Source of the DNA: Alphaproteobacteria bacterium
GTDB lineage: Bacteria; Pseudomonadota; Alphaproteobacteria; RF32; CAG-239
Reading direction: 5' to 3'
DNA: 64,000 bases
NCBI GenBank assembly: GCA_017445475.1
Contig: JAFSUB010000001.1
Coordinates: 14,834 to 78,833 of the forward strand
A model generated the notes under the pieces. It had not been told where the DNA came from, searched no databases, and worked only from the letters and a program-made list of their open reading frames with translations. Positions 26,975 to 57,569 of the stretch are shown in pieces; the first letter of the stretch is position 1; each line of letters starts with the position of its first letter. The position numbers and the translations under genes were made by a program.

Positions 26975-29122
26975 TTATAAAATCTCTTCGCCCGTTTCTT
27001 GGTCAACGCGTTTGGCAGACAATTTCCACTTGCCGCGATTGTCCATACCGATGCATTTCACCCAAATCGAATCACCTTCTTTATAGAAGTCTGAAACAGA
27101 TGCGATTCTCTCGTTTTTGATTTCGGAGATATGCACCAAACCTTCCGTTGAACCGACAAAACGCACAAAAGCGCCAAAGTCCATAATTTTGGTGATGACG
27201 CCCTTGTAAATCACGCCTTCTTCGGGTTCGGCCACAATATCCATAATGATGTTAAGGGCTTTTTCGCCGTCTTGCGTGTTCACCGAGGCAATTTTAACAA
27301 TGCCGTCGTCCGAAATGTCAATTTTGGTGTTTGTCTTTTCAATAATCTCACGGATAATCTTTCCACCCGTGCCAATCACTTCGCGGATTTTATCAACCGG
27401 AATTTTGAGTGTGATAATGCGCGGTGCAAGTTCCGAAACTTTTTCACGCGGTGCGGCAATGGCCTTTGCCATTTCGCCCAAAATGTGGATTCGCCCTTCG
27501 TGTGCTTGTGCCAAAGCATTTTTCATAATCTCTTCGGTAATAGACGTAATTTTGATGTCCATCTGCAAAGCGGTTACGCCGTCTTTGGTTCCGGCCACCT
27601 TAAAGTCCATATCGCCCAAGTGGTCTTCATCACCCAAAATATCGGTTAAAATGGCCACTCTGCCGTCATCTTCCTTAATTAAGCCCATCGCAATTCCCGC
27701 AACCGGCTTTTTCATCGGAACGCCGGCCGCTTCAAGCGAAAGCGTTGTGCCGCAAACGGTTGCCATTGAGGACGAGCCGTTTGATTCCATAATGTCGGAA
27801 ACAACACGAACAGAGTAGGGGAATTTTTCCTTATCGGTGGGCATCATCGGATGAATTGCACGCCAAGCAAGCTTTCCGTGGCCGATTTCGCGACGTCCCG
27901 GCGAGCCTATTCTGCCGCACTCACCAACTGAAAACGGCGGGAAGTTGTAATAAAGCATAAAGTCTTGACGATATTCTGCCATTAAGCCGTCAATAATTTG
28001 CGCATCGTCATCGGTGCCCAGCGTGGTCACAACCAAGGCCTGTGTTTCACCACGCGTAAACAAGGCAGAACCGTGTGTTGTCGGCAAAACATCAATTTGG
28101 CATTCAATCGGGCGGACGGTTTTCGTGTCGCGTCCATCAATGCGCTTGCCGGTTGACAGCACTTTTTCGCGCATAACTTTATGCATCACGTGCTCAATGG
28201 CGTCTTGCGCATAGCGAACCTCAATTTCGTTTTCGCTGTCAATCGTTTCTTTGAACTTTTCAGCCAAATCACCGAGCATCGTGGCACGCTCTTGCTTGTT
28301 GATAATGTTGAAAGCCTCTTCATACTGCGAGCCGAATTCTTTTTCGGCGCGTTCGCACAAGGCATAATATTCTTCCGGAAACTCCGGATTTGCCCAAGCC
28401 TCTTTGCCGGCTTCTTCCTTTAAGTCGTTAATCATTTTAATAACCGGTTGAAAACTTTCAAAACCAAACATCACCGCACCGAGCATCACATCTTCGGGCA
28501 ATTCGTTTGCTTCTGATTCAACCATTAAAACACCTTCATGAGTTCCCGCAACCGTCAAATCCAGCTCCGAATTTTTGCGTTCGGCAAGCGTCGGATTTAA
28601 GAGATATTGCCCGTTTTGATAGCCAACCTTAACGGCACCGATGGGCCCCAAAAACGGAATGCCCGAAACAGCCAAGGCAGCAGATGCCGCAATCATGGCC
28701 ACAATGTCAGAGTCATTTTTCTGATCATGCGACAGTGTTGTGCATATAATTTGAACTTCATTTTTAAATGCGTCAGGAAAAAGAGGACGAATCGGTCTAT
28801 CAATCAAGCGCGACAGCAAAACTTCACGTTCCGAAGGTTTGCCTTCACGTTTCATAAAACCGCCGGGAATTTTGCCGGTTGCATAATATTTTTCCTGATA
28901 ATTAACGGTTAAAGGAAAAAAATCTTGATCCGGTTTTGCTTCTTTTGCGGCGCAAACGGTTGCCACCACAACGGTTTCTCCATAAGTTGCAACAACGGCA
29001 CCCGTTGCTTGTCTTGCAATTTTTCCTGTTTCCAAAACCAGTTTTCGACCACCCCAATCCATTTCTCGGCGGGATACTTTAAAATCAATCATATTTTTTA
29101 CCTTTCCTATTTTAAACCTCAC
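26975..29122 (-). CDS. pnp: polynucleotide phosphorylase
   Basis: 715 aa: two RNase PH domains, KH ([10 protein letters not shown]) and C-terminal S1 domain. Confidence 0.95.
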
Positions 29123-29198
29123 CCGGCCCCATGCCGGGATTTTTCATCATTAAAACTGCGGAGCCCATGCCCCGCAGTTTTTTATTTTTTTGATAAGT
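29123..29198 (-). promoter_or_regulatory. rpsO-pnp intergenic hairpins (rpsO terminator / pnp leader)
   Basis: Two GC-rich hairpins (ACTGCGGGG...CCGCAGT and CCCGGCATGGGGCCGGG) between rpsO and pnp, where an RNase III-processed pnp leader is expected. Confidence 0.4.
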
Positions 29199-29468
29199 TT
29201 ACTTACGTAAACCCAGTTTTTTAACAATGGCCTGATAACGCGCCTCATCTTTTGCCTTTAAGTGGTCTAAAAGGTGGCGGCGACGGCTGACCATTTTCAT
29301 CAAGCCCAAGCGAGAGTGCAAATCTTTTTTATGCACATTAAAATGCTCGATTAAGGCGTTGATACGATATGTCCAAATTGCGATTTGAACTTCCGGCGAA
29401 CCTGTGTCGCCCGGCTTCAAACCGTATTTTGCAACAATTTCCTGTTTTTGTTCGTTTGTAATCGACAT
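29199..29468 (-). CDS. rpsO: 30S ribosomal protein S15
   Basis: 89 aa, [11 protein letters not shown]...HLLDHLK typical S15. Confidence 0.95.
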
Positions 29469-36731: not shown

Positions 36732-36925
36732 TGGTTAAACCGCACAAATGCCCGATTTGCGGCAAAGAAACAGCAGATGAAAAATATCGTCCGTTTTGTT
36801 CAAAGCGTTGTGCCGATGTCGATTTAGGCCGTTGGTTTGACGGCGCATACGCCGTGCCGGCTGAAAACCTTGATAAAGCAGATTATGAAGAGCTTGAAAA
36901 AGCCCTTGATGATGCGAAAATTTAA
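36731..36925 (+). CDS. yacG: DNA gyrase inhibitor YacG (zinc ribbon)
   Basis: CPICGK...CSKRCADVDLGRWF Cys4 motif, 64 aa. Confidence 0.8.
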   Translation: MVKPHKCPICGKETADEKYRPFCSKRCADVDLGRWFDGAYAVPAENLDKADYEELEKALDDAKI

Positions 36926-37025
36926 GAATGTTTCACGTGAAACATCTTATATATTTATAAGAAAAATCATATACTTATACATCATCAAGGGTGATGTTTT
37001 TTTGCACGTTTTGCCTTTTGTAATG

Positions 37026-37271
37026 TCAGTTGGAACGGCAATCATTTTTTCTTTCGTCAACAAGCCTTATTTCGATGGATTTGTGGAAATATTTCAAAGC
37101 CTCTTCAAAATTTATCCAGCCGACGCGATCTAAGCCGAGCTCAAGTCTTTCATACATGGCGGGACTTGTTTTAAGCGCCCTTGAGCAGGCGGCCATGCTT
37201 GTGTTGTTTCTTCGGCGCTCTTCAAAAAGAATACGGCCGAGCATTTTTTTGATTTGTTTTTGAATTGTCAT
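37026..37271 (-). CDS. small XRE-like HTH protein (cassette copy A)
   Basis: 81 aa; shares near-identical first ~70 aa with the ORF at 54204..54437; HTH-like LGRILFEERRRNNTSMAACSRALKTSPAMYERLELG. Confidence 0.6.
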   Translation of the reverse strand: MTIQKQIKKMLGRILFEERRRNNTSMAACSRALKTSPAMYERLELGLDRVGWINFEEALKYFHKSIEIRLVDERKNDCRSN

Positions 37272-37299
37272 AAGTAACTCCTGTTTTGTTCATGTTTCT

Positions 37300-37500
37300 A
37301 AAAAAAAACCGTTTTGAAAAAATCTCAAAACGGGGAGCTAACAAACTGTTACAGCACAGATGAGCTTATTCGCGCAAAGCCTTATATCGCCCACTCCCCA
37401 ATGTGGAGTTAACTGTAAGATGTTTGTTAAACACCGCAACCAATCGGTTGCAACGCTATTATGGGAAGATTTTTCTTAAATGTAAAGCAAAAATTTGAAG
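37300..37500 (-). ncRNA. conserved structured leader/sRNA candidate ending in intrinsic terminator (copy A)
   Basis: ~200 nt conserved with 54470..54660; hairpins ACTCC-N7-GGAGT and GCAACC-AATC-GGTTGC (copy B has compensatory GCAATC-AACC-GATTGC); minus-strand terminator CCGTTTTGA...TCAAAACGG plus 9 U, 29 nt before the XRE start. Confidence 0.35.
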
Positions 37501-37547
37501 ATGCTCTGATTTTTGCTTTGCAACAAAAGCATAACGGTTGTTGTGCA
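37497..37547. repeat. dispersed ~50-bp repeat (left flank of cargo A)
   Basis: GAAGATGCTCTGATTTTTGCTTTGCAACAAAAGCATAACGGTTGTTG recurs at 39030..39080; related copies at 54674..54711 and 57462..57493. Confidence 0.5.
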
Positions 37548-37635
37548 GATGCCTATGTGTTCACTCTTGCAGATGCAAATTAAGTTTTCTTAAAAAAAAG
37601 AATCCGTATGCCTTAAAAAGTATGCGGATTCTTCT

Positions 37636-38835
37636 TTATATCAGCAGCCAATCCAAAACATTTATTTGTTTAATTCCGTTGTGCGATGTAACGGGGATCG
37701 GATCCATTGTCAGTAAATATTTCGGATTATGGTCATTAATCAGTTGCAGAGGTCTTAATTCGCGTTCCAATACATTTTGTTCAACGGCCGTCCATGCAAC
37801 CTGATAATGTTCAACATCAGTTCCTTGCAAGGCCGTAAAATCAACCTCGTATTCACCGACTTTACCCACAAACACTTTATATCCGCGGCGTATCAGTTCA
37901 AGAAACACAATATTTTCCAAAATATGGCCGTAATCTCGGCTTGTTTGTCCGACAAGCAAATTTCTTAAAGCTATGTCGGCGATATAATATTTTTCACCGG
38001 TTTTCAAATATTCTTTACCCTTAATATCATAGCGAGGGACAGAATATAGAAAATAACAATCTTTAAGCGATGAAATATAACTATCTACCGTGTGTGTGGA
38101 TATGTCCTGACCGTCAGATGACATTGTATCGGCAATTTTTTTAATGGAAACCAAATTACCGATGTTGTCGCTCATAAATTTTGCAACGCGTTTTAAGGCT
38201 GAAGTGTCCGTCAAGCCTCGTCTGTCCGCAATATCTTTAACAATAATTGTGTTGTAAAGGGCATCCAAATAACCTGAAATGTTTTTTGAATCGCCGTTGA
38301 GTAATAACGTAAAAGGAAATGAACTGTCCGTTATATATTTTTGAAACAAATCCGACTTGCTTAAATTTTCAAAAGCTTGACGATATTCTTTGAGGGAAAA
38401 AGGTTGCATTCCGATTTCTATATAACGGCCGGAAAGCAACGTTGCCAGCTCTCCCGAGAGCAAATAAGAATTAGACCCCGTTAAATATAAGTCAACATTT
38501 TTTTTAACAAACAATGCGTCCACGGTTTTTTGAAAATCCGGAACATATTGAATTTCATCTAAGAGGACATAATTCATCTTGTCTGCAATAAGGCGTTCTT
38601 TGATATGTTGATACAATTTTTTATGATTCGTTAAATCTTGATATTTTTCGTCCTCAGATTCTTCAAAATTTATGCGAATGATTTGGTTTTGCTCGACACC
38701 GCTGTTAAGCAAATATGCCTCAAACAAATCAAAAAGGGTTGATTTTCCCGAGCGGCGAATGCCGGTTATAATTTTAATAATGGGTTTGTTTTTAAGGCTT
38801 ATCAGCCTGTCAATATATTCTTGGCGCTTTATCAT
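37636..38835 (-). CDS. AAA+ ATPase of the DUF4143 (AAA_14) family
   Basis: Walker A GIRRSGKST, Walker B VLLDEIQ, C-terminal DUF4143-like region; flanked by direct repeats. Confidence 0.75.
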   Translation of the reverse strand: MIKRQEYIDRLISLKNKPIIKIITGIRRSGKSTLFDLFEAYLLNSGVEQNQIIRINFEESEDEKYQDLTNHKKLYQHIKERLIADKMNYVLLDEIQYVPDFQKTVDALFVKKNVDLYLTGSNSYLLSGELATLLSGRYIEIGMQPFSLKEYRQAFENLSKSDLFQKYITDSSFPFTLLLNGDSKNISGYLDALYNTIIVKDIADRRGLTDTSALKRVAKFMSDNIGNLVSIKKIADTMSSDGQDISTHTVDSYISSLKDCYFLYSVPRYDIKGKEYLKTGEKYYIADIALRNLLVGQTSRDYGHILENIVFLELIRRGYKVFVGKVGEYEVDFTALQGTDVEHYQVAWTAVEQNVLERELRPLQLINDHNPKYLLTMDPIPVTSHNGIKQINVLDWLLI

Positions 38836-39029
38836 GAAACCTCCTTATTTAAAGATAATAATCAAAAAATTTGAAAAGTAAAACTAAAAGTTTATAAAAA
38901 TAATAAAAATTAGAAATTATTTTCAAATTATGGTCAACTCTTCGGACGGTGCGTCAGCGCATCAAGGGAACTCACCTTTGAAGCGTCGCACCTTTGGTGC
39001 ATATACGCTTCTGCTTTGTTATATAAAAT

Positions 39030-39080
39030 AGAAGATGCTCTGATTTTTGCTTTGCAAAAAAGGCATAACGGTTGTTGCGG
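39030..39080. repeat. dispersed ~50-bp repeat (right flank of cargo A)
   Basis: Near-identical to 37497..37547. Confidence 0.5.
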
Positions 39081-39108
39081 TTGTTTTGTTATTTTGATTT
39101 TTTTTTGC

Positions 39109-39137
39109 TTGACATCGCGGCGGATATTTTTTATAAA
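39109..39137 (+). promoter_or_regulatory. sigma70-like promoter for rpmH-rnpA operon
   Basis: TTGACA -17 bp- TATAAA about 75 nt upstream of the rpmH ATG. Confidence 0.45.
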
Positions 39138-39213
39138 GGCACTCTATTAACACCGAGAACCTTTTGAAACAATGAAGGTTTTAAATAAATAACAAATAAA
39201 CCGGAGAAATGAA

Positions 39214-39348
39214 ATGAAAAGAACATATCAACCAAGTAAGCTCGTCAGAGCCCGCCGCCATGGTTTTCGTGCACGTATGGCAACCGTCGGCGGACGGAAA
39301 GTTTTGGCAGCGCGCCGTGCAAGAGGGCGCAAAAAGCTTTCTGCTTAA
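39214..39348 (+). CDS. rpmH: 50S ribosomal protein L34
   Basis: Translates to [44 protein letters not shown] (44 aa, canonical L34); missed by the >=60-aa ORF track. Confidence 0.9.
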
Positions 39349-53541: not shown

Positions 53542-54190
53542 GAGTTTGACGGTTCGCGTTAAAACTTCAAAATATCGAAAACCGTCGTCAAACCGCTGGC
53601 TTGAGCGCCAATTAAACGACCCGTATGTTGCCGAGGCGCAAAAGCAGGGCTATCGTTCACGCGCCGCATTTAAGCTGATTCAGCTTGATGAAAAATACAA
53701 GTTTTTGCAAAAAGGAAAAATCATTGTTGATTTGGGGTGCGCCCCCGGCGGGTGGACTCAGGTTGCGGCTATCAAAAATAAGGGCTCGGGGCAGATTGTT
53801 GGTATTGACATTTTGGAGACCTCGCCAATTGAGGGAGCAACGCTTATATGTGAGGATTTCACATCAAAAGATGCGCCCGAAAAATTAAAATCGCTTTTAG
53901 AAGGTAAGGCAGACGTTGTTTTAAGCGATATGGCGGCCAACACCACCGGACACCAGCAAACCGACCATTTGCGCACGATTGCGCTTGTTGAGGCGGCGTA
54001 TGAATTTGCCAAAGAGGTTTTAAAAGAAGGCGGCATTTTTATTGCCAAAGTTTTTCAAGGCGGAACGGAGGGCGAACTTTTGGCCGATATGAAAAAGAAT
54101 TTTGCAAAAGTGTCGCATTTTAAGCCCGATGCCAGCCGTCAGAGCTCGCCGGAAACATACGTTGTTGCCGAAGGGTTTAAGGGCATATAA
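53498..54190 (+). CDS. rlmE: 23S rRNA (uridine2552-2'-O)-methyltransferase RlmE/FtsJ
   Basis: SRAAFKL, DLGCAPGGW, DMAAN motifs. Confidence 0.9.
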   Translation: MPKLTKSAKLVRGHKSLTVRVKTSKYRKPSSNRWLERQLNDPYVAEAQKQGYRSRAAFKLIQLDEKYKFLQKGKIIVDLGCAPGGWTQVAAIKNKGSGQIVGIDILETSPIEGATLICEDFTSKDAPEKLKSLLEGKADVVLSDMAANTTGHQQTDHLRTIALVEAAYEFAKEVLKEGGIFIAKVFQGGTEGELLADMKKNFAKVSHFKPDASRQSSPETYVVAEGFKGI

Positions 54191-54203
54191 AAACAACGGC
54201 CGC

Positions 54204-54437
54204 TTATTTTTGTTTTAGCTCGTCAACAAGCCTTATTTCGATGGATTTATGGAAATACTTCAAGGCCTCTTCAAACTTTTTCCAGCCGACGCGATCTAAG
54301 CCGAGCTCAATTCTTTCATAGGTGATGGGTTTTATTTTAAGCGCCTTGCAGCAGGCGGCGGTGTATGTGTTGTTTCTTTGGCGCTCTTCAAAAAGAATAC
54401 GGCCGAGCATTTTTTTAATTTGTTTTTGAATCGTCAT
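54204..54437 (-). CDS. small XRE-like HTH protein (cassette copy B)
   Basis: 77 aa, paralog of 37026..37271 (MTIQKQIKKMLGRILFEER...); C-terminus diverges at the junction with the core gene. Confidence 0.6.
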   Translation of the reverse strand: MTIQKQIKKMLGRILFEERQRNNTYTAACCKALKIKPITYERIELGLDRVGWKKFEEALKYFHKSIEIRLVDELKQK

Positions 54438-54469
54438 TGTTTTTAACTCCTGTTTTGTTCATGTTTCTC

Positions 54470-54660
54470 AAAAAAAACCGTTTTGGAAAAAAATCTCAAA
54501 ACGGGGAGCTCAAAAACTGTCCTAATACAGATTTCCTTATTCGCGCAAAGCCTTATTTCGGAAACTCCCCAATGCGGAGTTGAAATTAGGAAGATGTTTT
54601 TGAAACACCGCAATCAACCGATTGCAAGGTTATTATGGAAGATTTTGAAGAAATGTAAAG
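54470..54660 (-). ncRNA. conserved structured leader/sRNA candidate ending in intrinsic terminator (copy B)
   Basis: Same element as 37300..37500: AACTCC-N7-GGAGTT hairpin, GCAATC-AACC-GATTGC hairpin, terminator CCGTTTTGG...CAAAACGG plus U-run just upstream of the XRE start. Confidence 0.35.
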
Positions 54661-54673
54661 AAAAAAAATTGAA

Positions 54674-54711
54674 GATGCCTTGAAGTTTTTGAGCGCGCTC
54701 AAAAAATAGGC
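54674..54711. repeat. dispersed repeat (left flank of cargo B)
   Basis: GATGCCTTGAAGTTTT (16/16 with 57478..57493), palindrome GAGCGCGCTC, then GGCATGACGGGTT; second partial copy GCCATGACGGGTTGTG at 54758..54773. Confidence 0.45.
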
Positions 54712-54806
54712 ATGACGGGTTTTATAGATGTTTTGAATTTTTCGCTTAAGCGAAAAACAGCCATGACGGGTTGTGCTGTTTTTTCTCCATTCCGAACGAA
54801 AACAAA

Positions 54807-56009
54807 TTAAATATTTCTTTCTTTTTTCTGTTCGGTAATATTTATTTGTGATGATACTTGTTTTTGAGAAGTTTTATCGGGAAACGTATAGTTTATCCCA
54901 AGTGGATTGCTGGCCAACAACATACTGTCTGAATTGACGTATCTTGATATGAAAGCATCAATACCTAATCCGAAACTCATAGATTTAGGCAGTCCCCACT
55001 TCATATAAGACATTTCGTTTACATATTCCAAATTATTGTTGTTCTTCTGTTCTTGTAAAGCTTCCTTAACTTTACTATAATCTGTTTCATCACAATAACC
55101 ATGAGCCGTTAATCGACCATTTATATACCATTTAATTTCTGTTTTTAATCCGTTTTCATCAGGTGCGACAAGCGGATTTGAAACCGGCGCGTTAATCAAT
55201 ATTGTATTTTTAAACTCCGGAATTCTTCTTTGATATTGAATGCCTAATTCTGCCAAATTATTATAGTCAACTATATCAGGCGTCCCTTTCTCCGGTGTTT
55301 CAAAACCGTATTTCTTGCACAAAGTACTCATAATTCTACTTACTTTTGTCATGAATCTTAAAAGCTGAGGTTTTGTATAATCTAAAGAAACGAATTCCAA
55401 AGTGCACATTTCCGGAACATGGTTTGCGTCGGAATTTTTGTTGTAAAATACACTCCCGATTGTATAAACGGATTTTAATAAAATCGCGGCTGTTTGTTTA
55501 AGTTGATTTTCCGGAGTAATGCGCAAATAAACAGGCTCTTTATCAAACTGTCCCTTGGTTTGAAACGGAGGTATGGCAGAGCCGGTTCTTTCTCTTTCCA
55601 AGACTTTACAGGGTGTATTTTCAAATCCGTCTTTATCTAAAAGCTCGGAAATTTTCTGTATCAGTTCTTGCTTAAGCCGATAAACATCAATTTGCTTGCC
55701 TGCATTGCGGGCATTGCTTTGGGCATAGCGCTCACAGCCTTTAGAATTATTCGGTAAATTTTTAAACTCGTCCCATGTTTGACACGGACTTACCCACAAA
55801 ATTCTCTCAATTTTTAATACATTTTCTCCACTTTGGTTTTTTATGAATTTTCCGGTAGCGGCAAAACAATCTCCTTTTTTTAAAGCTTTCTTGTGATATA
55901 GATTTTTATCAAAAACAATTTGTTCCTTTTTACCATCACTTGTATATGTTTCGGCAAAAATCACGGATTTATGCTTCCTTACATTCAATATTCGAAAGAT
56001 TTTTTTCAT
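54807..56009 (-). CDS. class II (LysRS/AsnRS-subclass IIb-like) aminoacyl-tRNA synthetase paralog with N-terminal OB fold; motif 2/3 arginines apparently substituted
   Basis: Aligns to LysRS blocks: FENTPCKVLERERTGSAIPPF, VFYNKNSDANHVPEMCTLEF versus FRNEGISVRHNPEFTMMEL (R to Y, E to K), SFGLGIDAF versus GLGIGIDR (R to A); AT-rich relative to neighbours. Confidence 0.6.
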   Translation of the reverse strand: MKKIFRILNVRKHKSVIFAETYTSDGKKEQIVFDKNLYHKKALKKGDCFAATGKFIKNQSGENVLKIERILWVSPCQTWDEFKNLPNNSKGCERYAQSNARNAGKQIDVYRLKQELIQKISELLDKDGFENTPCKVLERERTGSAIPPFQTKGQFDKEPVYLRITPENQLKQTAAILLKSVYTIGSVFYNKNSDANHVPEMCTLEFVSLDYTKPQLLRFMTKVSRIMSTLCKKYGFETPEKGTPDIVDYNNLAELGIQYQRRIPEFKNTILINAPVSNPLVAPDENGLKTEIKWYINGRLTAHGYCDETDYSKVKEALQEQKNNNNLEYVNEMSYMKWGLPKSMSFGLGIDAFISRYVNSDSMLLASNPLGINYTFPDKTSQKQVSSQINITEQKKERNI

Positions 56010-56023
56010 GATTTTTTACCTTT

Positions 56024-56731
56024 TTAGGGAATTTGTTTAACCTTACGGTCATCTCTGCAAGTCATGATTTTTATCGAACCATCTTGAAAAACCAGTGCAG
56101 TGCAATCATCCATACTCCATCCTTGTATGTTTTTTTGTTTCAGTTTGTCATTTATCCTTTGTTTCTCATCTTCAGTCAGCCAGTCGTAATGTGGGACACC
56201 AAATCCTTTAATAAATCCCAAACCTCTAACCAAATCGAGTTGCTCAATATTTTCTATATCATCCATATTATCGTAATATTCAAACCAGCAAATGGCGCCT
56301 GCAGAGATACCGGCTAAAACAATTCCCTTTTGGTAGGCTTCGTATAAGATATCGCCAAGTTTATATTTTTGCCAAATGTTCAGCATGGTTGTTGTATCTC
56401 CGCCACCGACATAAATAATATCACTTGAAAATATTTTGTTTCTAATTTCTTGTATGGAAATTGATTCCTCTACCAAATTTAAAGGTTCAACGGAATGGCA
56501 CCCCAAACGTCCCTTAAAATGATTCTCTACAACTTCCAGATAACTTTTTTTATCACCTGAAGCCGTGCCGACAAAAAGCATTTTAGGATGCTTTTTTCCC
56601 GTTGCATCAACAATAAAACGATCAATCAGAGTTGTTTCCACGTCTGTTTGCACAGAAGTACCGTCCGGCAAAACCTTTATTCTTCCTATTTCCCCTCCAC
56701 CGACAGCTATAATCATTTTTTTCATTTTCAT
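56024..56731 (-). CDS. S51-family peptidase (peptidase E / cyanophycinase-like)
   Basis: IYVGGGDTTTML, nucleophile block LAGISAGAICW, His in VPHYDW; 15-bp gap to the aaRS-like gene. Confidence 0.7.
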   Translation of the reverse strand: MKMKKMIIAVGGGEIGRIKVLPDGTSVQTDVETTLIDRFIVDATGKKHPKMLFVGTASGDKKSYLEVVENHFKGRLGCHSVEPLNLVEESISIQEIRNKIFSSDIIYVGGGDTTTMLNIWQKYKLGDILYEAYQKGIVLAGISAGAICWFEYYDNMDDIENIEQLDLVRGLGFIKGFGVPHYDWLTEDEKQRINDKLKQKNIQGWSMDDCTALVFQDGSIKIMTCRDDRKVKQIP

Positions 56732-56749
56732 TGCCTTTAATTATTGTTT

Positions 56750-57343
56750 TTACCTGTTTTTTGTTTTTCGATAATTGTATAAATCTTCAAAAATTTTTGT
56801 ATTTTGTCTTTCACGCTTTTTTAAATATTCTTTCACTTGTTCAGCCCGCTCTGCAACAGAGCCTGCCACCAAATTATATTTTATTTTATGATGATTCATA
56901 AATTCTATTATTTGTTCATGTAAAATATCTTTGGTTCCCTCATCTCCACGCATCATACTGGTATCAAATGCAATATGCGGATCACACACAAAAACAACAT
57001 CTTGTGTTTTGTAAAATTCTAACGCTCTTTCTTTGAGCTCGGGAAATTCTCTGCCAAACGAATATTTATTTCCCAAATAAAAGATTAACGGTCCGCTGTC
57101 GATAAATAAATATTTTTGTGCTTTTTTTTCCAAAATTTCGATGTCATAATTTTGCAAATCGGCTGCCTCAATAAAAACATCGTTCGTAATTTGTGCAATG
57201 CCTATGCCACGTTTGGTCATAACATCACGCATACGTTCTGGAGCGTGAGGCTCACCATACATGTCGGCACAATAGCGACACAGAGTAGATTTACCCGTGC
57301 TTGACGCTCCTGAAAAATTAATTTTTAAGATTTTATTACTCAT
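56750..57343 (-). CDS. P-loop NTPase / small-molecule-kinase-like protein (NadR-kinase/AAA_28-like)
   Basis: Walker A INFSGASSTGKSTL near N-terminus, Walker-B-like LFIDSG; 197 aa; 18-bp gap to the peptidase gene. Confidence 0.55.
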   Translation of the reverse strand: MSNKILKINFSGASSTGKSTLCRYCADMYGEPHAPERMRDVMTKRGIGIAQITNDVFIEAADLQNYDIEILEKKAQKYLFIDSGPLIFYLGNKYSFGREFPELKERALEFYKTQDVVFVCDPHIAFDTSMMRGDEGTKDILHEQIIEFMNHHKIKYNLVAGSVAERAEQVKEYLKKRERQNTKIFEDLYNYRKTKNR

Positions 57344-57461
57344 TTTTTGTTTGTCCGTAACATTGCCGTAATGATATCCTAAACAAATATTTTTGTCAAC
57401 ATATATTTACAAATCGATTAAATAATTATGGAATAATTTCTTAGATTTTGGTTTGTTATAT

Positions 57462-57493
57462 TGGCATGACGAGTGGTGGATGCCTTGAAGTTT
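57462..57493. repeat. dispersed repeat (right flank of cargo B)
   Basis: GGCATGACGAGTGG followed by GATGCCTTGAAGTTTT, matching the left-flank elements in rearranged order. Confidence 0.45.
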
Positions 57494-57569
57494 TCAAATA
57501 ATGCTTGATATTTGCTTTAAAATGTATCATATTTGCTCACAAATCAGTGATGAATTGGAAAAAAGGAAA

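Follow-up and report, generated by a model that had tools for sequence, protein, structure and literature searches.

How does a small regulatory gene, together with an ATPase gene held between two hairpin repeats, come to lie between yacG and rpmH, and which part of this arrangement is the unit that has moved? This question is addressed here for a window of 64,000 nt from Alphaproteobacteria bacterium (GCA_017445475.1, contig JAFSUB010000001.1, 14,834-78,833, forward strand). Coordinates are window positions unless they are preceded by an L number, which denotes a sequence from a relative. A preliminary description had pictured the locus as a cassette-like platform, comprising a small XRE-like gene, a conserved non-coding element of ~200 nt, a ~50-bp repeat (D8), a DUF4143 ATPase gene and a second D8, and had reported the same order with other cargo at 54.2-57.5 kb. 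The small gene, both repeats and the ATPase gene were all found at or near the positions it had given. The unit that comes and goes is a promoter, a structured leader RNA and a helix-turn-helix (HTH) gene, with or without cargo. The leader is a previously undescribed structured RNA and a well-supported candidate for a new RNA class.

A lineage-specific insertion between yacG and rpmH

An empty yacG-rpmH junction was found in three contigs (L028, 192 kb; L031; L036), which were reached through a ribosomal protein L34 sequence common to several related lineages. In these contigs rpmH follows ~200 bp after yacG and the gene order is otherwise identical. Homology between the window and L028 breaks at 37003, directly 3' of the T-tract of the intrinsic yacG terminator (36979-37003, plus strand; a hairpin followed by T7, found by the terminator scan), and restarts at 39082. 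Because two sister lineages with 90-92% identical flanks have yacG adjoining rpmH, the block of ~2.08 kb at 37004-39081 (minus strand; junctions ±~9 nt), absent from L028, L031 and L036, is proven to be an insertion, as the preliminary description had supposed, and is lineage-specific. The insert thus sits between the yacG terminator and the retained rpmH promoter. The latter (TTGACA-17-TATAAA, 39109-39137, plus strand) is a likely promoter just outside the insertion that was recognized by eye, was not called by the promoter scan and is conserved at the empty site.

Pairwise identity is 92.3% between the window and L028, 90.2% between the window and L036, and 90.5% between L028 and L036. The occupied genomes (the window, L008 and the metagenome-assembled genome (MAG) GCA_017613075.1) are mutually 94-97% identical, and a single insertion is therefore the most parsimonious account. 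By these identities, the empty lineages fall outside the occupied clade. A scan of a genome collection with Rng returned only one useful relative (RUG14252, on a short contig) and was uninformative on the empty-site question. In this relative, whose Rng is 80% identical, the gene after yacG is not rpmH but encodes a secreted, cysteine-rich ankyrin/EGF-like protein (L021:9443-10415).

All elements of this insertion, copy A, are read here on the minus strand. Their order is a distal D8 (39025-39077), a second structured element termed E2 (38930-39020), the ATPase gene (37636-38835), a terminator-like hairpin (37598-37633), a proximal D8 with one partly decayed arm (37491-37543), a promoter (37458-37486), a leader RNA of ~150 nt with its terminator (37300-37451), a Shine-Dalgarno (SD) sequence (37276-37281) and the HTH gene (37026-37271). 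The two D8 copies, which were defined by repeat search, profile and DNA folding, are 53 nt each and 92% identical, and they bracket the ATPase open reading frame (ORF). The hairpin just 3' of the ATPase stop codon was assigned to the plus strand by the scan; its T-run follows the stem on the minus strand, on which it reads as the putative ATPase terminator.

The ATPase (399 aa) is a P-loop protein matched by the Pfam families AAA_14 (2e-31) and DUF4143 (4.6e-18) and, over residues 1-398, by the PADLOC candidate defence family PDC-S01 (E 2.8e-148). This likeness to PDC-S01 and AAA_14-DUF4143 ATPases is confined to the cargo of copy A and has no bearing on the platform. The GC content of the cargo segments of copy A and of the second copy described below is 33-37%, compared with 43-48% in the flanking core genes; the cargo is compositionally foreign.

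The promoter-RNA-HTH core and its copies

The recurrence at 54.2-57.5 kb was upheld, with the qualification that the far-end D8 is present there only in degraded form. Copy B occupies the spacer between rlmE and lepB (54184-57495, minus strand) and repeats the element order of copy A with three other cargo genes. Its block is not common to the relative L037, in which homology ends at the rlmE stop codon and resumes at 57496; the edges of block B are accordingly the rlmE stop and the outer D8. On the minus strand it carries a 77-aa HTH paralogue (54204-54437), the leader RNA (54435-54625; terminator 54470-54504), a TTTACA-16-CATAAT promoter (54632-54659) and, beside the leader, two tandem D8 hairpins (54660-54783; individually 54660-54723 and 54722-54783) with the cores GAGCGCGCTC and CGCTTAAGCG. 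The cargo operon follows upstream (54807-57343), and a degraded distal D8 pair (57463-57505) marks the outer edge. The HTH genes of copies A and B are 88% identical over 225 nt, and the non-coding sequence upstream is 79% identical over 114 nt.

Cargo B comprises a NadR-like P-loop kinase (56750-57343), an S51 peptidase (56024-56731) resembling cyanophycinase and PepE, and a truncated class II aminoacyl-tRNA synthetase paralogue (54807-56009; 400 aa) nearest to LysRS/EpmA. All of these likenesses fall far below family cut-offs, and the genes may together form an amino-acid ligation or modification system. In L037 (5760-6520), a relative with an 86% identical LepB, the rlmE-lepB spacer carries a different filler of 0.76 kb, consisting of a TTGACA promoter, a leader of ~230 nt and an 87-aa ORF without a Pfam match. 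The spacer has the look of a hot spot for the insertion of small units.

The orthologous copy-B locus of L014 (MAG GCA_017613075.1) retains at the far end of the cargo what is degraded in the window, namely an intact D8 with a promoter copy (L014:7481-7575). This far-end copy runs through the -35 and -10 boxes, stops there and is fused to a remnant of the 3' end of the kinase gene. On both sides of the cargo, the D8-plus-promoter repeat of L014 ends exactly at the -10 box.

Within the clade, the module was found at five or more chromosomal sites. Context look-ups placed copies at yacG-rpmH, rlmE-lepB, bPH_2-mlaC and ferritin-rpe, three of these sites being occupied in one MAG. A pattern scan of metagenomes added four diverged copies, of which one lies after engB and one precedes a BspA-type leucine-rich repeat (LRR) gene that replaces the HTH gene.

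The copy at ferritin-rpe (L011) is a bare promoter-RNA-HTH unit without cargo and without D8, and the same spacer is empty in the sister lineage L040-L042. Here 489 nt (L011:9792-10280) replace 29 nt of the native rpe promoter (L040:4952-4980). Within the insert lie the -10 box, the leader and the HTH gene, as well as a promoter directed outward (TTGACA-17-TACGAT); the left junction falls within a TTTAC motif resembling a -35 box. In L011 the core gene rpe appears to have been re-wired to the outward promoter supplied by the insert.

Blocks A and B each start at the outer D8 and end shortly beyond the stop codon of the HTH gene. Because the bare module is itself present or absent and distant copies are without D8, the conserved vehicle is the promoter-RNA-HTH unit and not D8. 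The invariant core of the family is, within it, the RNA and the HTH gene.

Two sequences combine features of different copies. In L020, a contig of 990 nt, upstream sequence of copy A is joined to coding sequence of copy B and its rlmE flank. In P1 and the 5' strand of helix Y (both described below), the leader at L008:1643-1829 resembles copy B, and elsewhere it resembles copy A, with two mismatches in Y. Both are either products of recombination between paralogous modules or assembly chimeras.

A structured and rapidly diverging leader RNA

The non-coding element had been described as conserved, which it is, and had otherwise been under-read: it is an RNA with strong covariation, is served by a promoter and a terminator of its own and stands out more than any other part of the locus. 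In copy A the sigma-70-type promoter of the leader/HTH unit (TTTACA-17-CATAAT) scores 10/12 in the promoter scan and is kept in the other copies. The structured body (37334-37451) is followed by an intrinsic terminator (37300-37333) with a stem of 9-11 bp (37333-37309) and U9, identified by the terminator scan, and then by the SD sequence GGAGUU, which is invariant across 12 copies.

The structure was derived from an alignment of these 12 copies, made by hand on invariant anchors. It begins with P1, a hairpin of 6 bp (37436-37451 in copy A; 54610-54625 in copy B), followed by a long rod (5' strand 37411-37435, 3' strand 37334-37356) with the terminator directly after it. Above the base of the rod (GG.G:C.CC, closing GGUG:CUCC) come, in turn, helix Y:Y' (9-10 bp), an internal loop and helix X:X' (7-8 bp). 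The rod is topped by a three-way junction that bears the invariant hairpin P3 (CUCC/GGAG; 37394-37409) and the covarying helix P4. A conserved internal loop (GAUAUAAG / CGAAUAA), together with a mini-hairpin, caps P4, and P4 and this loop take up 37361-37393.

Standard pairs fill 97.5% of the alignment cells, a percentage inflated by fitting the hand alignment to the structure, and 20 of the 46 pairs have changed on both sides. None of 500 shuffles reached the observed values, and partners slid out of register were 38-54% paired. X:X' alone has nine different sequences among the twelve copies. Folded without constraint, the terminated RNA is predicted to adopt the rod as its minimum free energy (MFE) structure in 9 of 11 copies; in the remaining two, the rod is within 0.8 kcal/mol of the minimum. 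A first model from RNAalifold, with a P2 hairpin, a CUGU/ACAG hairpin and b:c and a:SD pairings, was replaced by the rod model because of the covariation seen in X:X' and Y:Y'; the old pairings remain a possible alternative fold.

A covariance model recovers only the known copies in the window (37266-37451, 142.5 bits; 54435-54625, 167.6 bits, the latter match spanning the SD and ATG as well) and none in the empty-site lineages. A weak match at 29122-29229 (19 bits) has hairpin-plus-T-run features and was read as ordinary terminators. Against Rfam 15 at the gathering threshold, the window returned only a tRNA elsewhere in its sequence. Permissive Rfam scans gave sub-threshold chance matches only for 36900-39250 (E >= 0.17) and no match up to E = 1 for L016, L017, L024 and L026.

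How does such an RNA evolve? The leader is kept before HTH homologues that are only 27% identical, and once before the BspA-type LRR gene. Comparison of the window leaders (37334-37451 and 54505-54625) with those of L004, L011 and L014 put the difference between copies at 35-40% of positions in helices P1, Y, X and P4, while the remaining RNA is ~97% identical and the HTH genes of the same copies differ at 9-16% of synonymous sites. The leader helices thus change several times as fast as the synonymous sites of the neighbouring gene. This holds between orthologous same-site copies of two strains (copy B of the window and L014). Candidate explanations are diversifying selection for copy-specific pairing and mosaic recombination from a pool of diverse alleles.

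The small HTH protein

The label "XRE-like" given earlier to the small gene finds support in its predicted fold and in structural matches, and none in Pfam HTH families. No match to the 81-aa protein was found in Pfam, NCBIfam or PADLOC. A word-indexed search of 5.8 billion proteins returned six clusters only, all from the same uncultured alphaproteobacterial lineage, and a profile search of 1.84 billion representatives gave ~25 full-length small relatives amid many spurious matches resembling tetratricopeptide repeats. The AlphaFold (AF2) model has four helices (pLDDT 81.6), and every top match in the Protein Data Bank is an XRE/Cro-C1 HTH protein (C.BclI, HipB, SinR, ClgR; TM 0.6-0.7). The protein is thus predicted to be of XRE type at the level of fold. 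The leader-linked protein of L023, which is 27% identical, is a profile-level homologue and matches HTH_31 at E 0.0017, short of the cut-off. Between copies, the ratio of non-synonymous to synonymous polymorphism (pN/pS) of the HTH ORF is 0.2-0.6, which indicates a real gene.

Proposed regulation by the leader

The arrangement of the leader suggests a cis-acting attenuator or a riboswitch-like element. Two invariant segments, AACUCC and RRCUCC, are complementary to the SD sequence, and in the rod fold these anti-SD-like segments are held by the SD mimics GGGGAGU and GGUGUU. The base of the rod has a competitor in a local hairpin (GGUGUU/AACAUC), which likewise consists of invariant bases. The predicted MFE structure has the SD paired in all 11 full-length RNAs. 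The alternative fold is the MFE structure or within 3 kcal/mol of it in every copy, at -2 to +9.5 kcal/mol relative to the rod fold. Because there is no room for a promoter of its own, the HTH gene would have to be expressed by read-through.

In the mechanism proposed, the sigma-70 promoter would drive the ~150-nt RNA, and transcription would mostly end at the terminator. On transcripts that read through, AACUCC or RRCUCC could sequester the SD unless the rod holds those segments. The rod and junction domain would act as the sensor, and the leader would join termination with SD sequestration so as to gate the HTH regulator in cis. The HTH protein would, in turn, regulate the promoter type common to the units.

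Riboswitches and attenuator leaders share with this RNA a promoter, a covarying domain, an intrinsic terminator and an SD within ~30 nt, as well as anti-SD and SD-mimic segments and the persistence of the leader with its downstream gene across deep protein divergence. Unlike them, the leader has no Rfam 15 match, its terminator lies outside the structured domain and its helices outpace synonymous sites. The gene it would control also differs, being a tiny transcription factor (once an LRR surface protein), and therefore offers no clue to a ligand.

The D8 repeat and element E2

The AT-rich sequence of D8 forms an imperfect palindrome whose outer arms are conserved (CGTYATGCC ... GRCATC). The inner stems vary yet keep pairing, in three core variants (GC-GAA-GC and the two tandem cores of copy B). 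Four of six D8 copies have DNA fold z-scores of -2.3 to -3.1. Regular-expression and profile searches of the 64 kb found four full copies and remnants. In ~250 kb of lineage DNA, D8 was module-associated only, apart from one D8-E2 pair between convergent genes in L004, and the same kinds of search found none in ~190 kb of other DNA from the clade and more distant relatives. The idea that D8 is a ubiquitous intergenic repeat of the repetitive extragenic palindrome or bacterial interspersed mosaic element kind, adjacent by chance, would fit its short, AT-rich, hairpin-forming and intergenic character and can be dismissed on this distribution.

Two resemblances to D8 were not upheld. A "degenerate D8" at the ferritin site proved to be native sequence that is present in the empty allele too. 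The D8 core resembles the leader Y helix in copy B of the window and in L004; as the resemblance is missing in L014 and L016, it is probably low-complexity chance.

E2 is a structured element of ~90 nt with a strong predicted hairpin (GAAGCG..GCACC AAA GGTGC..CGCTTC; DNA fold z -3.2). It is found in the window and twice in L004 (9425-9510 and 2290-2393), always 3' of a D8-type hairpin and once between convergent genes far from any module. L004 also carries a MITE-like insertion (miniature inverted-repeat transposable element) of ~190 bp (L004:9523-9716) whose terminal inverted repeats measure 12 bp (ATCACCCTCTCC / GGAGAGGGTGAT). In the mlaC-site module it lies between E2 and the proximal D8, the slot that the ATPase gene takes in copy A.

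How might the units spread?

Among the ORFs of the window (gene tables for 1-64 kb), none matched a Pfam family of integrases or transposases, in agreement with what had been reported; five ORFs have no Pfam match at all. Searches of plasmids (module BLAST), phages (whole-insert BLAST) and viral contigs (leader-pattern scans) gave no match, and the junctions bear only short, imperfect AT-rich repeats. The family has so far been seen only in a narrow clade of uncultured Alphaproteobacteria from metagenome assemblies. Within it, the core occurs alone or with low-GC cargo upstream that is bracketed by direct copies of D8, copies that in L014 include the promoter.

These observations are best accommodated, with a probability of about 0.45, by a family of recombinase-less accessory islets that gain and lose cargo through D8/promoter repeats and in which an attenuator-type leader gates an XRE-fold regulator. 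Host recombination between the direct D8/promoter repeats, and at short AT-rich microhomologies in the spacers between promoters and terminators, would allow units to spread and to acquire or shed cargo, with no enzyme of their own for the purpose.

Several points weigh against this account. The recombination mechanism is drawn solely from the geometry of the repeats. No site was found at which the module is kept while the cargo differs or is gone; the empty sites miss module and cargo together, which leaves cargo exchange hypothetical. D8 is missing from the distant module copies and from the ferritin copy and may thus be incidental. The comparison at the copy-B site relies on L037, a distant relative at 73-76% nucleotide identity. 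On the side of the leader, only 12 RNA copies from one clade are available, their paired percentages being inflated as noted above. The alternative fold rests on invariant bases, without covariation. The terminator and the rod do not overlap, so that a classical terminator/antiterminator switch is not evident, and no clue to a ligand or to the function of the gene was found. The cassette platform proposed earlier is supported only in part: the repeats bracket the cargo and mark the block edge, but no independent cargo exchange was seen at any site, no recombination site was recognized in D8 and no enzyme was found in the window.

Could the blocks instead be ordinary horizontally acquired islets with a local regulator? 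D8 would then be a shared cis-regulatory site (an operator, an UP-like element or an insulator) duplicated through co-regulation, and the islets would have entered by transformation and homologous recombination in the flanks. This is a tentative possibility that several observations favour. D8 lies directly upstream of the -35 box, and the point at which the L014 repeat stops, exactly at the -10 box, fits a conserved promoter rather than a recombination scar. Structurally, the HTH protein is nearest to C.BclI, C.AhdI and HipB, which regulate themselves through palindromic operators. The window yielded no recombinase, and there is no convincing terminal inverted repeat (TIR) or target-site duplication (TSD). 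However, inner stems that change yet keep pairing argue for a hairpin formed in a single strand over an operator fixed as a duplex. In copy A the distal D8 has E2 after it and no promoter, the bare module is also inserted alone, and D8 stands exactly at the outer edge of both blocks. The more specific proposal that D8 is the operator of the neighbouring HTH protein was rejected because core type does not follow the recognition helix: L016 combines an A-type recognition helix with a B-type core.

The same discordance bears on the comparison with restriction-modification controller (C) proteins and HipB-type antitoxins. These share with the HTH protein its predicted fold, a size of 70-80 aa, a setting in accessory DNA and a palindrome beside their own promoter. 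They differ in that the protein described here has no Pfam membership and no restriction-modification or toxin partner, an RNA leader lies between promoter and gene, and the palindrome core does not co-vary with the recognition helix.

A more far-reaching form of the islet account is doubtful. It holds that the promoter-RNA-HTH unit is a new self-contained recombinase-less element with a new RNA class, whose rapidly diversifying helices would give each copy a private specificity for orthogonal control of paralogues or for its own spread, and which would recruit defence and metabolic genes between hairpin repeats.

It is unlikely that the unit is a non-autonomous, gene-carrying MITE-like transposon whose ends derive from the D8 arm and whose transposase is encoded elsewhere, the outer D8 serving as an alternative end that co-mobilizes cargo. 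Read in inverted orientation, the left end of insert A (GCA-CGTTTTGCCTTTTGT) agrees at 12/13 positions with the 5' arm of D8 at the right end, and imperfect AT-rich duplications of 7-9 bp are seen at insert A (TGTTTTTTT / TTGTTTTGTT) and at the ferritin-site insert (TTTACTTGA / TTTCCTTGA). The unit is multi-copy, with occupied and empty alleles at yacG-rpmH and ferritin-rpe, and a separate MITE occupies the same slot in L004. Yet the inverted D8-arm match was not found downstream of other copies, and the duplications are of low complexity and mismatched despite ~92% identical flanks. The ferritin event replaced 29 bp and was no clean insertion, and no transposase was seen in the 64 kb. MITEs with regulatory signals, such as Correia elements, are likewise small and multi-copy, lie in promoter/terminator spacers and carry outward promoters, like the one directed to rpe. 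The unit differs from them in encoding a protein and a ~150-nt RNA, in its weak or absent TIR and TSD, and in having replaced target DNA in one insertion.

Copy-specific pairing is the principle of the c4 RNAs of P1/P7 and the CI RNA of P4. That the leader is no metabolite sensor but a regulatory RNA of this immunity or orthogonality type, with copy-specific segments, and the module the control region of a decayed satellite or prophage-like element, seems quite unlikely. Rapid divergence of P1, Y, X and P4 amid an otherwise nearly constant RNA would suit such a role, as would the persistence of this pattern between orthologous copies, the several paralogous copies per genome and the XRE-type partner gene. 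The variable segments pair in cis, however, which ordinary structural constraint explains too, and mosaic recombination between alleles (L008, L020) could give the same pattern. There are no phage genes nearby, the phage, plasmid and viral searches were negative, and no scan returned an Rfam family.

An integron-like cassette array (a cluster of attC sites lacking integrons, CALIN) or a XerCD/dif module, with D8 as an attC- or dif-like site for a recombinase elsewhere, is very improbable. D8 flanks cargo in direct orientation and is imperfectly palindromic, its outer arms conserved and its centre variable, and integron cassettes likewise have hairpin palindromes that bracket accessory genes beside a fixed, promoter-bearing platform. 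No attC core site (R', GTTRRRY; R'', RYYYAAC) was found on either strand of six D8 regions from the window, L014 and L004, and no integrase family that could represent an adjacent IntI is present in the window. The cargo genes have their own candidate promoters and a terminator-like hairpin, each locus has one cargo slot, and what comes and goes is the platform, which lacks D8 at the ferritin site. Pdif modules and other Xer-dependent elements are also accessory modules without a recombinase of their own, bounded by short repeated sites. In contrast to these, no 28-bp dif-like site is present at D8 (the best match has 11-12 mismatches in 28, no better than the window background of 10), and the loci are chromosomal and dispersed rather than at dif or on plasmids.

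Implications

For the leader, the promoter, terminator and structure are defined well enough for probing and reporter constructs of this candidate new RNA class to be ordered. It is unusual for RNA helices to evolve faster than synonymous sites, and this property is testable. The clean pairs of occupied and empty sites show small units bringing a candidate defence gene into promoter-terminator spacers of core operons with no recombinase gene nearby, and they bear on the movement of such "orphan" islets, a topic in the biology of defence islands.

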